This document shows positions 12,293 through 16,511 of a DNA stretch of 34,582 nt, piece by piece. A model generated the notes under the pieces. It did no database searches. It saw only the letters and a program-made list of their open reading frames with translations, and was not told the DNA's origin. This DNA is from a virus, in the UHGV virus genome UHGV-0129090; one strand, given 5' to 3'. Position 1 is the stretch's first letter, and every line of letters begins with the position of its first letter. The translations under genes were made by a program, and so were the position numbers.

Positions 12293-12751
12293 TTAAGCAT
12301 TAATACCGGATTGAATAGGACCGCCATCTACCGCTAGTGTGAATGCCTTAGTAACTACTTCATCTTTACTACCTGCAATCAAGTTAGCAGATACGAAAGC
12401 GTTATAGATTACAAAGAAGCCACTAGAACGGGTAGCGTTTTCGTAGTAGGTGATTTTAACCTGAGTACGTACCTGATCGTCTGCGAGTCGTTCTAGCTTC
12501 TGGTGTACTGCGTTATCTGCTAGATAGTTAACAGTTAGTTCGATATCTGGGATTGATTTAGTACCTAGTAGCTTACGGTTATAAGCGGAGTTATAAGTAA
12601 CAACATCAATAACAGTAGATTCAAAACCACTGGTAGCAAAGGTTGCCACTTCTGGGATTTCTTGAAAATCTGCGGCAGCGGTAGAGCTACCAGCGGTATA
12701 AGTGCCTAACTCTACTTTTAGGTTAGCACCAGTCATAATAGACATAGCCAT
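12293..12751 (-). CDS. Major tail tube protein (152 aa)
   Basis: It lies immediately upstream of the G/G-T chaperones. Size and beta-rich sequence are typical of siphovirus tube proteins. A terminator follows, which fits a highly expressed gene. Confidence 0.75.
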   Translation of the reverse strand: MAMSIMTGANLKVELGTYTAGSSTAAADFQEIPEVATFATSGFESTVIDVVTYNSAYNRKLLGTKSIPDIELTVNYLADNAVHQKLERLADDQVRTQVKITYYENATRSSGFFVIYNAFVSANLIAGSKDEVVTKAFTLAVDGGPIQSGINA

Positions 12752-12809
12752 ATTTTTTATTTCCTTATATAAGTTGGATTAGTAGGGAAGTCCATTCCCT
12801 ACCGTTTAT

Positions 12810-15800
12810 TTATTTATTCTGTGCAATTAGTAATTGAGTTACTACAGCACGTAGTTCATCTAGTTGTAGCTGTTGGTCTGCAATTTGTGCTTTTAGAGTA
12901 TCATTTTCTTTAGATAGTTCTTGGATTGCCGCAAGTCCGTCTAATAGCATTGGGGTTTGATCTAGATGATACAATTCACCAATTTTATTAACGTACTGTG
13001 GATCAATAGTCCTAATCTGTTGGCTAATTACACCGCGACGGGCTTTATCAGGGGTATCATTGAATGTAAAATCCTTAAATTCCATTCTATTGATATTTGA
13101 TAGAGCTACCTTAGTGTCTAAATCACTCTGGATAGTTTTAACAGACTGGTCAGATACTGCCGACATGGTTATTTGGTTCCATGCACTCCATGAGCTGTTG
13201 TTAGTCTGGATACGTGAGAATATACGGTTTGACGTATCATAGAAACGTTGTTGATACCATTGACCAGATACACCAGTTGCAGCACTAGGACCAGCATCTA
13301 GACCCTGCGTACATTGAGTGAATAGAGAGCCGTAAACACTACCCGACGTTGGGGCGTTAGACATAACACCGCCAGTATTTTTCCATCCTTGATACTGAAT
13401 GTTAAAATCATTACCAGACCCACCGTCTGTACTGTTACCGTTTGGTGCTAGGCCGCCATTATAGCCGACATACATCACTGTATTTGCCGATGGTTTGGCA
13501 AAACGTATAGTTTTACGGTTGGTAGTTGATGTATGACCATCCATAAAGAGATATAGACCATCCTCACCATTATTTTCAAAATATACACGTTTCCCAATAG
13601 TACCGTCGCCTACTCGGTTAGAGATAAGATAAACTCCGGGATAGTTGGCTTGTGCAACCAGTTTACTAGAAGAAATAATATCACCACTTGCCGTAACAGT
13701 ACCGGTAGATATTGATCCAGACGTTACAGTACCTGTTGTAGTCAATGATGCAGCATTAATACTATCAGTTGCTACAATAGATTCAGCATTTACACTACCT
13801 GTTGTAGTTAGTGATGCGGCGTTCAAACTACCTGTTGTAGTCAATGTACCCGTACTGGATAGATTACCCGTAACAGATAGATTTTTTAGAGTGGTATTTG
13901 CTGCTGCTGTACTAAGTGTATCCGTACTAGCTGTATATTTAATTACATCAAATGTATCATTTTTAGATAATGTAATATTACCAGCCGTTCCAATTAGTGA
14001 ATATTTTGTAGCACCTGTTCCCGTTTGATTGAGAATAAATGCAGGTGATCCACCTTCAATTGTAATTGGTGATGTTACTTTACCAGTGATTGATAGATTA
14101 CCATTAAATGATTGAGTACCTGCCCATGTATTAGCTAGATTCAGTGCTGGAATCTGATTCCATGTTCCATGTGTGCCAGCTTCGATAGTACGGAAGAATG
14201 CTTTATTCTGTCGGCCTACAATCTGGAAACCATAATTACCACTAAAGCCAGTATGAGTACCACCATAAACGTTAGCACCGTCTGGACCATTCACACTACC
14301 AGCCAGAAATCTACTACGGTTAATAATGGACGTTTGACCGTTCCAGTCCTGACCAGTTGAAGATAAAAATCCATTTGGTGAACTAAATGTACCATCGCTA
14401 TTAAAGTTGAAGAATTGAGTAGTATCACTTGAAGTAACGCCACGCCATACTAATTGAATTGCACCGTCGCTAGTTCTAAATTCTGATTGAGATTTAGTAG
14501 TTTTATCTGCATTCAATTGTTTTGATACAAAGGTAAAATCATTTACACCAGTACCGGAAGCAATAAAACCGTTACCCGCTTCAATATTACCACTAAAGGT
14601 TAATTTAGGAGATGTAATTGTTAGGTTATCGCCAATATTCATCCCATTTGAAAGTACAGCACGACCGCCACCACCGATATAATAGTTTGGTGTAGTAGTA
14701 GAACTATTGGACATATAAAAGCCAGGACGAGCTTGTCTAAAATCGAATAATGCACGTGTTCCGTTTGCTACTGCGGTACTCATTGGATCTTCTACGCCCC
14801 ACGGATAAACTACATCAGTCCCAGCGGTATATGATGCCGTTGGTGCAAATGCGGTACAGAATGCGGGTATCCTCATACGTACTGGGAACGCTCGACCCTC
14901 TACATATACTGCCATCTTATCTTCTGCAATCTTCGCACTAACTAGAATACAGTTAAGTGCTTTTTCAGTTGGTGCATAGCAGTTATAGTAACCATAGCCA
15001 GCATCACCGCGATCTGTCCATCCACCAGCACGTACGAAGCCGTTAAACTGTGCGGAGTTCATTGGATCACCACCAGAAGACGATTTAGTATATAGGTCGA
15101 TATGTGCACCAGTAGAAGAAATATTTTCATAGGATAGATCAATAATTACTGGATAGTATTTGTCTGCTTCCACTCCCGGAGGTGCCGGAATTGCGATTAT
15201 TTGACCACTACCAACGGTAGGGGCTTTAATATTATTTCTAGCAGTAGTAACGTCTGCTACATCACTTAGATTACTTGCAATTTTCAATTGTGCATCATTG
15301 GTTACATTACTTAGTCCTACATCACCTTTAGTGATTGAGATATTACCAGTAAGTGCTTTGCCATTAATAGTAGTAGTTTTTGGTACATATAGATTACTAA
15401 CTTCGGAAGAAGAAAGAATACCTAAGTTTGTTCTCGCCTGTGCTGCCGTACTTGCACCAGTACCGCCCTGTAGAATTGGTAATGCGTATGGTGCGTTGGC
15501 TGTGCCGTTCCATACTCCCCAGGTGCCATCGTTCTTAACAAATAAACGCATATTACCATCACCGGATACTACGCGAGTTTCTCCAACTGGATTAGCGTAT
15601 TCTTGGAAACGGCTTAAACCTAAGTTAGTACGGGCAACTGATTTATCAGCCACATCAGCAAGGTTACTTGCAATTTTCAACTGTGCATCATTGGTTACAT
15701 TACTTAGTCCTACATCACCTTTAGTGATTGAGATATTTGTAGTAAGTGGTCTACCGTTAATAGTACGGGATAATGGCACATACTGATCACTAATCTGAGT

Positions 15801-16511
15801 TGCAGTAAGTATACGCGTCCATGCTGTATTCTGGTTCTTTGCATAGATTGCCAATGTACCGGATTTAGTCATTGCAATACTGGAGAATGTACCGGAATCG
15901 ATAAGACCAATACCCATTAGATCCGCACTAGCTGGGTTATCATTGCGTGCTGCTGGTACTTTGATAAAACTGTTGCCATTTGGTAACTGTGGTTCGTACT
16001 GTGGTACGTCTACGCCGTTACTACCTACGCCATATGATCCTACAACTAGTCCGGTACTCAATGGTGCTTGACCATCACGTACTAGAACGTCGGTAGGGGT
16101 AAAGGTATATGATTTAGTAACTACTGAGTCTTTATCACCAGCAAGGCGAGCGGAACTAATCATACCATTCACCATACTATAGGAGATGATACCATCAGTT
16201 ACGGCGTACTGTAGTGTTAGCTGGAACTCGGTCTGATCTTCGGTCGCTTGGTCTAAAAATGCGTGAGCGGTGCAATCTGGTACGTAGTTAACAACAATAT
16301 CAATATCGTTTACGTTCTGTTCTGCGAGTAGTTTCTCTGAAAATTCACTGTTATATACTTCAATAGATTGTACTTGGCTATCAATACCGAATGAAGGCAT
16401 CGCCGCCAATTCATTTACTAGTTCATTCCCTGCGTTATCGGGGATACGGTTTGCGGTGTCGTCATTATAGAATAATTTAAAACCACTCCCTGTAAAAATT
16501 TGATCTGCCAT
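12810..16511 (-). CDS. Tail-tube-paralog::long fibre fusion protein with C-terminal S74-type intramolecular chaperone (1233 aa)
   Basis: Residues ~1-145 align with the 152-aa tube protein. Compare SIEVYNSEFSEKLLAEQNVNDIDIVVNYVPD with VIDVVTYNSAYNRKLLGTKSIPDIELTVNYLAD, and ARLAGDKDSVVTKSYTFTP with NLIAGSKDEVVTKAFTLAV. The middle carries fibre repeats (TING(R/K)xLTxNISITKGDVGLSNVTNDAQLKIASNL, twice; GGTGASTAAQARTNLG). The C-terminus (SDQSVKTIQSDLDTKVALSNINRMEFKDFTF...RRGVISQQIRTIDPQYV...LDGLAAIQELSKENDTLKAQIADQQ) looks like the auto-cleaving chaperone of T5 pb1 and endosialidases. Confidence 0.7.
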   Translation of the reverse strand: MADQIFTGSGFKLFYNDDTANRIPDNAGNELVNELAAMPSFGIDSQVQSIEVYNSEFSEKLLAEQNVNDIDIVVNYVPDCTAHAFLDQATEDQTEFQLTLQYAVTDGIISYSMVNGMISSARLAGDKDSVVTKSYTFTPTDVLVRDGQAPLSTGLVVGSYGVGSNGVDVPQYEPQLPNGNSFIKVPAARNDNPASADLMGIGLIDSGTFSSIAMTKSGTLAIYAKNQNTAWTRILTATQISDQYVPLSRTINGRPLTTNISITKGDVGLSNVTNDAQLKIASNLADVADKSVARTNLGLSRFQEYANPVGETRVVSGDGNMRLFVKNDGTWGVWNGTANAPYALPILQGGTGASTAAQARTNLGILSSSEVSNLYVPKTTTINGKALTGNISITKGDVGLSNVTNDAQLKIASNLSDVADVTTARNNIKAPTVGSGQIIAIPAPPGVEADKYYPVIIDLSYENISSTGAHIDLYTKSSSGGDPMNSAQFNGFVRAGGWTDRGDAGYGYYNCYAPTEKALNCILVSAKIAEDKMAVYVEGRAFPVRMRIPAFCTAFAPTASYTAGTDVVYPWGVEDPMSTAVANGTRALFDFRQARPGFYMSNSSTTTPNYYIGGGGRAVLSNGMNIGDNLTITSPKLTFSGNIEAGNGFIASGTGVNDFTFVSKQLNADKTTKSQSEFRTSDGAIQLVWRGVTSSDTTQFFNFNSDGTFSSPNGFLSSTGQDWNGQTSIINRSRFLAGSVNGPDGANVYGGTHTGFSGNYGFQIVGRQNKAFFRTIEAGTHGTWNQIPALNLANTWAGTQSFNGNLSITGKVTSPITIEGGSPAFILNQTGTGATKYSLIGTAGNITLSKNDTFDVIKYTASTDTLSTAAANTTLKNLSVTGNLSSTGTLTTTGSLNAASLTTTGSVNAESIVATDSINAASLTTTGTVTSGSISTGTVTASGDIISSSKLVAQANYPGVYLISNRVGDGTIGKRVYFENNGEDGLYLFMDGHTSTTNRKTIRFAKPSANTVMYVGYNGGLAPNGNSTDGGSGNDFNIQYQGWKNTGGVMSNAPTSGSVYGSLFTQCTQGLDAGPSAATGVSGQWYQQRFYDTSNRIFSRIQTNNSSWSAWNQITMSAVSDQSVKTIQSDLDTKVALSNINRMEFKDFTFNDTPDKARRGVISQQIRTIDPQYVNKIGELYHLDQTPMLLDGLAAIQELSKENDTLKAQIADQQLQLDELRAVVTQLLIAQNK
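15271..15344. repeat. 74-bp direct repeat, copy A (inside the fibre gene)
   Basis: TTACTTGCAATTTTCAATTGTGCATCATTGGTTACATTACTTAGTCCTACATCACCTTTAGTGATTGAGATATT matches 15664-15737 except for one base (15288 T versus 15681 C). Confidence 0.9.
15664..15737. repeat. 74-bp direct repeat, copy B (inside the fibre gene), 393 bp from copy A
   Basis: See copy A. The offset is 393 bp, or 131 codons, so the repeats are in frame. Weaker similarity extends on both sides. Confidence 0.9.

Follow-up and report, generated by a model that had tools for sequence, protein, structure and literature searches.

The virus genome UHGV-0129090 was analysed as one window of 34,582 nucleotides (nt), which comprises a whole prophage of about 33 kb with a G+C content of 39%, far under the E. 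coli average. Its structural genes all lie on the minus strand in a lambda-like order that starts with a gpA-type terminase, a head-tail joining gene, a lambda-family portal, a protease-capsid fusion, an FII-like stopper and an open reading frame (ORF) of 130 amino acids (aa), and continues with an ORF of 1233 aa, a tail-tube gene of 152 aa, G and G-T, the tape measure, the distal tail protein, and L-like, K-like and J-like genes. Here we describe the 1233-aa protein, in which a domain related to the tube protein is joined to a long fibre. Based on the present data, we propose, with a probability of about 0.55, that this lateral fibre is anchored to the tail via a hexameric ring of tube-paralog domains, most likely beside the distal tail protein.

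The N-terminal tube domain and the fibre

A first-pass annotation of this sequence had noted that the first ~145 aa of the 1233-aa protein are homologous to the 152-aa tube protein encoded just downstream, and had listed conserved blocks shared by the two. Both observations were borne out by BLASTP, which aligned residues 1-155 of the fusion with residues 1-150 of the tube protein at 31% identity (E 7e-19). The blocks found in this fusion/tube alignment are YNSEFSEKLL/YNSAYNRKLL, DIDIVVNYVPD/DIELTVNYLAD and AGDKDSVVTKSYT/AGSKDEVVTKAFT. The same annotation had suggested a profile search to place the domain in a tube or a non-tube family, and the result was a tube family: both proteins match phrog_158 (the PHROG major tail protein) over the same profile positions 12-157, with E-values of 4.7e-20 and 1.6e-19. 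In Pfam scans, the 152-aa protein matched Phage_tail_3 with 28.6 bits (cut-off 24.2); the fusion gave no tube-family match and no match at all in residues 1-250, and one member of the fusion family matched Phage_TTP_12. A predicted model together with a fold search assigned the tail-tube fold, a beta-sandwich with a flanking helix, to the N-terminal domain, whose fold matches include Hcp proteins. The second-best fold match was Sf11 gp24 (PDB 9occ, chain B), a protein with the tube fold in a tail structure that was deposited as 'putative neck whiskers protein', a name that is probably a legacy annotation. The domain and the tube protein align collinearly. The N-terminal arm motif (M1, T7, G8) and the YNS..KLL and DI...VNY blocks are preserved in it, so that it retains the features one would expect of ring and stack contacts. 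Both its sequence and its fold make the N-terminus of the fusion a true tube paralog.

The tube domain is followed by a linker (residues 146-180; see the table for all coordinates) in and next to which G158, G161, G163, P170, G179, N180, F182 and K184 are invariant or near-invariant among 52 family members, and which has no regular secondary structure in the model (pLDDT 65-70). The small beta domain that comes next (residues 181-247) is 40-70% identical across the family, a level at least as high as that of the tube domain, with which it is co-conserved. Its profile was compared with residues 1-130 of lambda Stf, which gave an hhalign probability of 0.1% with this single-sequence template of low sensitivity.

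Judged by its sequence, the rest of the protein makes up a lateral tail fibre that carries an S74 chaperone. The fibre part matches the lateral tail fibres of 725 phage records in tblastn, and two further claims of the first-pass annotation were confirmed in this region. The duplicated fibre modules were recovered both in the protein (26 identical residues at 259-284 and 390-415) and in the DNA (two 169-nt copies at 15646-15814 and 15253-15421, 80% identical). The C-terminal chaperone was identified as Peptidase_S74 (PF13884), which matches residues 1120-1174 with 26.4 bits (gathering score 22) and starts exactly at SDQSVK (residues 1120-1125; family consensus SDxxxK). The serine and the lysine have a catalytic role in S74 chaperones, as seen in work on endosialidases, and from the sequence we infer autocleavage at Ser1120. 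The distal fibre also contains three tandem 33-nt (11-residue) repeats at 13711-13837 (…TGSLNAASLTTTGSVNAESIVATDSINAASLTTTG…); repeats of this kind are typical of a beta-helical or triple-strand shaft segment and mark a possible site of slippage or recombination.

The attachment module and its distribution

Four relatives of 824-1144 aa (P0005, P0007, P0010 and P0011) are 90-100% (about 98%) identical to the window protein over residues 1-250, lose this identity abruptly at about residues 250-285, and show only 10-30% beyond about residue 285. The C-termini of 52 members carry S74 in 30 cases, Phage_tail_C_2 in 8, Collar in 6 and other fibre domains in the others. A constant N-terminus combined with a swapped fibre argues that residues 1 to about 250 form a conserved virion-attachment module and that the remainder is an exchangeable receptor-binding part; on these sequence comparisons the boundary near residue 250 is a functional one. 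Further evidence came from phage SeppeHuegi (Bas24). Its lateral tail fibre shares 41-49% identity with the window protein over residues 243-852 and 31% over the S74 end. The N-terminus of the SeppeHuegi fibre, which served as a positive control, is PF08400 ('prophage tail fibre N-terminal', E 5.5e-22), which we take to be the family of the lambda Stf N-terminus. Since a homologous fibre has a different N-terminus, the tube-paralog module appears to take the place of a known tail-attachment domain.

The module swapping and the substitution seen in SeppeHuegi favour the view, put forward in the first-pass annotation, that the tube-fold domain is a fibre anchor. The same annotation had offered capping of the tube as an option, and this part did not hold. 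A role of the fusion as tail cap or terminator is unlikely, since the 130-aa ORF directly upstream has a tail-terminator fold and would be a separate cap protein (hhalign comparisons of its family with lambda FII, Z, U, V and M gave no signal, the templates being single sequences of low sensitivity). A role as the major tube protein was rejected as well: a tail of ~27 rings would need ~160 copies of the 1233-aa chain, and it is the 152-aa protein that is encoded by a conserved, terminator-flanked tube gene.

A search of 1.84 billion representative proteins with the N-terminal 247-residue profile yielded 146 at E <= 1e-10, of which about 100, each representing a 50%-identity cluster, are long (400-1563 aa) and match the whole profile from residue 1; the hosts of these include Klebsiella, Pantoea, Leclercia, Serratia, Buttiauxella, Enterobacter and Phytobacter. 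The identical 1233-aa sequence belongs to a 35-member cluster from independent E. coli and Shigella assemblies, in which it goes by 'tail fiber domain-containing protein' or 'hypothetical protein'. We gathered 60 loci with a fusion-type gene, drawn from genomes, metagenomes and IMG/VR. A terminator-sized ORF lies just upstream of the fusion in 59 of the 60, and a tube gene of ~150 aa lies downstream in 57, the 3 loci without it being cut by contig ends or frameshifts. Most of the 60 loci, from many genera, have intact ORFs of 780-1350 aa, and fusions from different genera are 40-57% identical to one another. The survey of related prophages proposed in the first-pass annotation thus had a clear outcome: the architecture is widespread in uncultured Enterobacterales prophages. 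Neither megablast of the locus nor tblastn of residues 1-247 found a match in 50,697 phage records, and for the capsid protein the matches in cultured phages are distant (~31-47% identity over parts of the protein). Because no cultured-phage relatives are present among these records, the lineage is known only as prophages and viral contigs.

Two groups of relatives differ in their gene arrangement. A second fibre gene, which encodes an S74 domain, comes after the fusion in Serratia-type relatives. In a sister lineage (L061-L073), the tube paralog is only 340-400 aa long and is followed by a separate fibre gene of 800-1300 aa and then by the tube gene (for example 7980-9182, 9192-13100 and 13616-14086 in L061); the tube-paralog protein of L061 has a C-terminal T4 gp36-like joint domain. 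The stand-alone paralog of this lineage suggests that the tube-paralog module works as a docking ring even when it is not fused to a fibre. Sometimes a ~150-aa chaperone is found after the fibre gene in these loci, and the tube gene is directly followed by K-like and J-like genes, which amounts to a different module order.

The fusion and tube genes of the window are separated by a 58-nt spacer (12752-12809) that includes a GC-rich stem-loop. The corresponding spacers of relatives (L004-L075; 40-70 nt from fusion stop to tube ATG) were folded one by one and compared with shuffled sequences, and 30 distinct spacers had a GC-rich hairpin of 5-10 bp (median z -3.8). The stems have about 20 different sequences, which indicates that the pairing was kept through sequence change; RNAalifold predicted no pairs on a MAFFT alignment of the spacers, in which the stems were misaligned. 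GGA is present in or at the hairpin loop in 25 of the 30 spacers, a second GGA is part of the Shine-Dalgarno sequence, and no U-tract follows the hairpin. The hairpin could be an element for mRNA processing or stability, or could take part in a CsrA-like two-site control of the tube-to-fibre ratio. The terminator-like hairpin right after the tube gene suggests partial termination, which would raise the tube transcript over the genes downstream.

With respect to the prophage as a whole, a 91% identical copy was found in a complete E. coli chromosome inside an interrupted yegD gene, beside a large serine recombinase. Of 5426 complete E. coli genomes, only 2 contain the exact fibre-region variant of the window, whereas draft assemblies commonly harbour relatives of the lineage. 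Since a J-like central tail fibre is encoded in the window, the fusion would be a second, lateral fibre. The distal tail protein is larger than lambda gpM (109 aa) and has a weak, sub-threshold match to the B (OB-like) domain of T5 pb9 (E 0.0036), as do its counterparts in relatives. NCBIfam gave nothing informative for any tail protein of the window. The G gene has a run of eight A (A_AAA_AAA, ~11930-11937, minus strand) directly before its stop codon, which is a canonical -1 frameshift site. From this run the -1 frame is open and leads into a 104-aa 'T' ORF, and the T part of relatives starts with the same KRGL..EF..L.P.LF. Capsid relatives combine Peptidase_S78 with Phage_capsid, and no separate protease or scaffold gene is present between the portal and capsid genes.

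Table 1. Features of the UHGV-0129090 window around the fusion gene and at the prophage ends.
Feature	Position	Strand	Evidence or remark
yegD parts flanking the prophage	1-676 and 33768-34532	+	
J-like central tail fibre, 1100 aa	4396..7698	-	phrog_31 central tail fiber J, E 8e-53; Pfam Phage_Tail_Tip, fn3
Distal tail protein, 184 aa	8725..9279	-	phrog_1302, E 3e-16; proposed seat of the fibre-bearing ring
Tape measure protein, 732 aa	9347..11545	-	phrog_13674, E 5e-75
Tail assembly chaperone G	11927..12229	-	phrog_344
Tail assembly chaperone G-T, via -1 frameshift	11547..12229	-	phrog_344; reading frames, A8 run
Intrinsic-terminator-like hairpin and T8	12259..12275	-	right after the tube gene, before the chaperone genes
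Canonical major tail-tube gene, 152 aa	12293..12751	-	Pfam Phage_tail_3; phrog_158; followed by intrinsic terminator
GC-rich stem-loop in fusion/tube spacer	12782..12802	-	
Tube-paralog::lateral-fibre fusion gene, 1233 aa	12810..16511	-	ORF list
Residues 1120-1233, S74 intramolecular chaperone and C-terminal coiled-coil-like tail	12813..13154	-	PF13884
Residues 248-1119, exchangeable fibre shaft and receptor-binding part	13155..15770	-	phrog_6578 tail fibre, E 1e-126
Residues 181-247, small beta domain, five strands and one helix	15771..15971	-	pLDDT 85-92
Residues 146-180, extended linker GSYGVGSNG..PQY..P.GNSFIK	15972..16076	-	most conserved stretch of the family
Residues 1-145, tail-tube-fold domain	16077..16511	-	paralog of the downstream tube protein
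Tail terminator, 130 aa from ATG at 16917	16525..16917	-	tail-terminator fold; directly upstream of the fusion gene
FII-like head-tail joining (stopper) protein	16919..17239	-	Pfam Phage_attach, E 9e-7; phrog_82 head closure Hc1
Major capsid, 620-aa fusion with N-terminal prohead protease-like part	17253-19115	-	
Serine recombinase, 532 aa, at one prophage end	32206-33804	-	

Position of the fibre-bearing ring

Siphophage tail-tube proteins form stacks of hexameric rings round the tape measure protein. In the mechanism that we propose, the tube-fold domain would replace ordinary tube subunits during tail assembly in one hexameric ring coaxial with the tube, and this ring would most likely be the first one laid on the distal tail protein. 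From this ring the six C-terminal chains would emerge and assemble in threes to give two trimeric fibres, each of which would be folded by the S74 chaperone before the chaperone cuts itself off at Ser1120. The fibres might then make the first, reversible contact with the cell surface, after which the J-like central fibre would engage its own receptor. Such a protein would merge the p140/TTMP ring, the p132/LtfC collar and the pb1/LtfA fibre of T5 into one polypeptide. We infer the incorporation as a ring and the formation of two fibres from six copies from the evidence presented above, and the distal position by analogy with other tails.

Several observations favour this distal seat. In T5 and DT57C the p140/TTMP ring carries the lateral fibres at that place, and its gene adjoins the tube gene (PMC10713586). 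All structurally characterised side-fibre anchors on non-contractile tails are distal (PMC13455828), and the homologous SeppeHuegi fibre has a distal collar anchor. Nucleation on the distal tail protein would be a simple way to limit the paralog to one ring. Furthermore, the tail should be ~114 nm long, as scaled to the 732-aa tape measure from lambda with its 853-aa tape measure and 132.7-nm tube (PMC12617516), a length that would keep a neck-anchored fibre away from the cell. As for the rate of evolution, the tube protein is the slowest-evolving protein of the module (mean p-distance 0.32) whereas the tube domain of the fusion has a mean p-distance of 0.54, which fits use in one ring and not in every ring.

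Some of the data weigh against this proposal. The faster evolution of the fusion's tube domain may also mean that some tube contacts were lost, and one relative (L051, 7992-8453) has a fibreless paralog of 153 aa in tandem with the tube gene. The passage from six chains to two trimers needs a symmetry adaptation. Homologs of the T5 collar protein and of p140 were not detectable by BLAST in the window, so the analogy with T5 would be structural and not one of shared descent. The fusion gene adjoins the terminator gene, and the usual logic of gene order could then mean a head-proximal ring. Finally, we correlated the distance matrices of twelve proteins from 38 loci (mirror tree). Known partners scored highly in this analysis (portal-capsid 0.93, FII-terminator 0.92, distal tail protein-L 0.92), but no partner was singled out for the fusion's tube domain, which correlated with all tail proteins (r 0.71-0.86; FII-like protein 0.86, terminator 0.83, distal tail protein 0.79, tube protein 0.71).

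Owing to the gene order, a head-proximal ring is a serious rival, although we regard it as considerably less probable than a distal one. The tube-fold domain would then be the last tube ring under the terminator, and neck fibres or whiskers would result, which might run alongside the tail or act as sensors of the environment. The conserved neighbours of the fusion gene (the terminator-sized ORF in 59/60 loci and the tube gene in 57/60) agree with this placement, as do the marginally higher correlations with the FII-like protein and the terminator than with the distal tail protein; these correlations, however, are confounded by linkage and do not discriminate. The T5 tube-paralog gene also adjoins the tube gene, yet its ring is distal (PMC10713586), and the homologous fibre body of SeppeHuegi uses a distal Stf-type collar anchor. 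Moreover, a neck-anchored fibre of ~870 residues would be unlikely to reach the tip plane of a ~114-nm tail, and nothing obvious would confine a tube paralog to the last ring.

Sporadic or mixed incorporation is in our opinion improbable. In this scheme the fusion would compete with the tube protein during polymerisation and end up scattered along the tail or in mixed rings, how often depending on the expression ratio. In its favour are the collinearity of the two tube domains with their common N-arm and core motifs, the similar Shine-Dalgarno sequences (AAGGAA) of the two genes, and the conserved intergenic hairpin with the terminator after the tube gene, which could set a ratio. A trimeric fibre requires three neighbouring fusion subunits, however, which random incorporation would rarely supply. 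The 31% identity to the tube protein and the long separate conservation of the fusions (40-57% among themselves) argue for a specialised site, and there is no known siphophage with long fibres along the tube. We give equally little credence to a domain that is off the tube axis, either because it mimics the tube at a peripheral docking site, for example of the distal tail protein or hub, or because it is needed for assembly only, or to a defective prophage in which the protein is unused. The faster evolution of the fusion's tube domain, the rarity of the window's variant (2/5426 complete E. coli genomes), the truncated L051 paralog, and fusions disrupted by frameshifts or stops in L049 (8001-10360), L052 (7992-11736) and the metagenomic L003 (7047-10633), which may be pseudogenes or assembly errors, could be read in this way. 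Against it stand the intact ORFs in most of the 60 loci, the invariant anchor residues, the complete structural module around the fusion gene, and the finding that the tube-fold domains of known tails are all on the axis (PMC13455828). The chance that two genes were joined by a sequencing or annotation error is negligible. We found nothing in its favour beyond the split fusion of L003 (312 + 782 aa), and an artefact is ruled out by the identical sequence in the 35 members from independent E. coli and Shigella assemblies, by the 91% identical copy in a complete genome, and by the occurrence of the architecture in ~100 clusters and 60 loci. Taken together, we therefore prefer the ring on the distal tail protein.

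If this is true, a fibre that is itself a tube subunit would be a distinct and simpler attachment solution, and it would show how a structural paralog was recruited as an anchor. The boundary between anchor and fibre at about residue 250 lends itself naturally to exchanges in host-range engineering. Prophages of the lineage are common in Klebsiella, Enterobacter, Citrobacter, Salmonella and E. coli, and the annotation of their receptor-binding proteins is poor, with names such as 'hypothetical' and 'tail fiber domain-containing protein'.

Comparison with known side-fibre anchors

How side fibres are fixed to non-contractile tails was resolved only recently and for a handful of phages (PMC13455828). 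The attachment modes given in that paper (August 2026) are the distal tail protein of monocin, the collar of Ur-lambda, the TTMP and collar of T5, and the central-fibre shaft of F-type pyocin. A fibre covalently joined to a tube paralog is not among these four modes, and no description of one was found in open-access papers or preprints. The first-pass annotation had known of no described example with a fibre of this size. This is upheld for cultured phages and the open-access literature, but the closest precedent, p140 of T5/DT57C, had been overlooked.

In T5 and DT57C, the lateral fibres are carried by a tube-fold ring of p140 (TTMP), which is seated on the distal tail protein pb9 and has the last tube ring on its other side; the apparatus also includes a dodecameric collar of p132 (LtfC) and the fibre pb1 (LtfA) with an S74 chaperone (PMC10713586). 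The window resembles this system in that a specialised tube paralog, encoded beside the major tube gene, would be the platform for S74-type lateral fibres. The weak pb9 B-domain signal of the distal tail protein and the homology of the fibre body to the lateral fibres of T5-like phages add to this likeness. The two systems differ in that ring and fibre are one polypeptide in the window protein, and that its gene lies upstream of the tube gene whereas that of T5 lies downstream. The window paralog also has a single tube fold (expected to form a hexamer with two fibres), whereas p140 has a double fold and forms a trimer with three fibres and a 12-mer collar. T5.135/136, used to look for the collar protein, gave nothing better than E 0.7 in tblastn against the window, in which the other tail-module ORFs are all assigned; the first 150 residues of pb1 had no match in the window, and full-length pb1 aligns weakly with the fibre shaft (E 3e-4). 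On sequence grounds, the system would thus resemble the T5 lateral-fibre apparatus in its working but does not belong to it, as no collar protein, p140 homolog or pb1-type N-terminus was detected.

A different solution was seen by cryo-EM in Ur-lambda, where twelve Stf N-terminal domains form a collar round the gpV/gpM junction and carry four fibres (PMC12617516). The first-pass annotation had counted gpJ-type adaptors among the normal attachment points of long side fibres; lambda contradicts this, since its side fibres attach at the gpV-gpM junction by their own N-terminal dodecameric collar and not via gpJ (PMC12617516). Like Ur-lambda Stf and the SeppeHuegi fibre, the window protein would be a long trimeric side fibre on a lambda-like tail (portal, terminase, FII-like, G/GT and J-like proteins); the fibre body is homologous, and the N-terminal module is again the conserved anchor of an otherwise exchangeable protein. 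The Stf-type collar domain has ~94-130 residues at the N-terminus, whereas the window protein has no PF08400 or CarboxypepD_reg-like match and instead a tube-fold domain, which should sit in the tube wall itself.

The side fibres of monocin are attached to a loop of the galectin domain of the distal tail protein, and those of the F-type pyocin to the helical shaft of the central fibre (PMC13455828, PMC11830787). These are likewise distally anchored side fibres of non-contractile tails. They differ from the window protein in that the N-terminus of the fibre is docked non-covalently on another protein and that the fibre chain has no tube-fold domain.

Extended ('evolved') Hcp proteins of type VI secretion systems have C-terminal toxin domains. 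They share with the fusion a tube-fold subunit with a large C-terminal cargo and a dedicated paralog beside the plain tube subunit; their cargo, however, is an effector delivered with the tube and not a receptor-binding fibre, and no sequence relationship between the two is known. Tube proteins of siphophages can themselves be decorated, examples being the C-terminal Ig domain of lambda gpV, the Ig domain of T5 pb6, and SPP1 gp17.1*. The decoration of gpV and pb6 is mentioned in recent work (PMC12617516, PMC13243795). These proteins and the fusion have in common a tube-fold domain with a C-terminal extension that projects outside the ring. In gpV, pb6 and gp17.1*, however, it is the major tube protein (or its frameshift variant) that is decorated, in every ring and with one domain of ~100 residues, whereas the window has a separate paralogous gene with a trimeric fibre of ~1090 residues and its own chaperone. 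Compared with all of these systems, we consider it somewhat more probable than the contrary that the fusion represents a previously undescribed way of attaching siphophage side fibres. In it, the fibre would be covalently continuous with a tube-paralog ring in the tail axis, with two fibres per hexamer, the module would also exist as a stand-alone adaptor with a gp36-like joint, and the arrangement would be the standard solution of a large uncultured lineage of ~33 kb temperate Enterobacterales phages.

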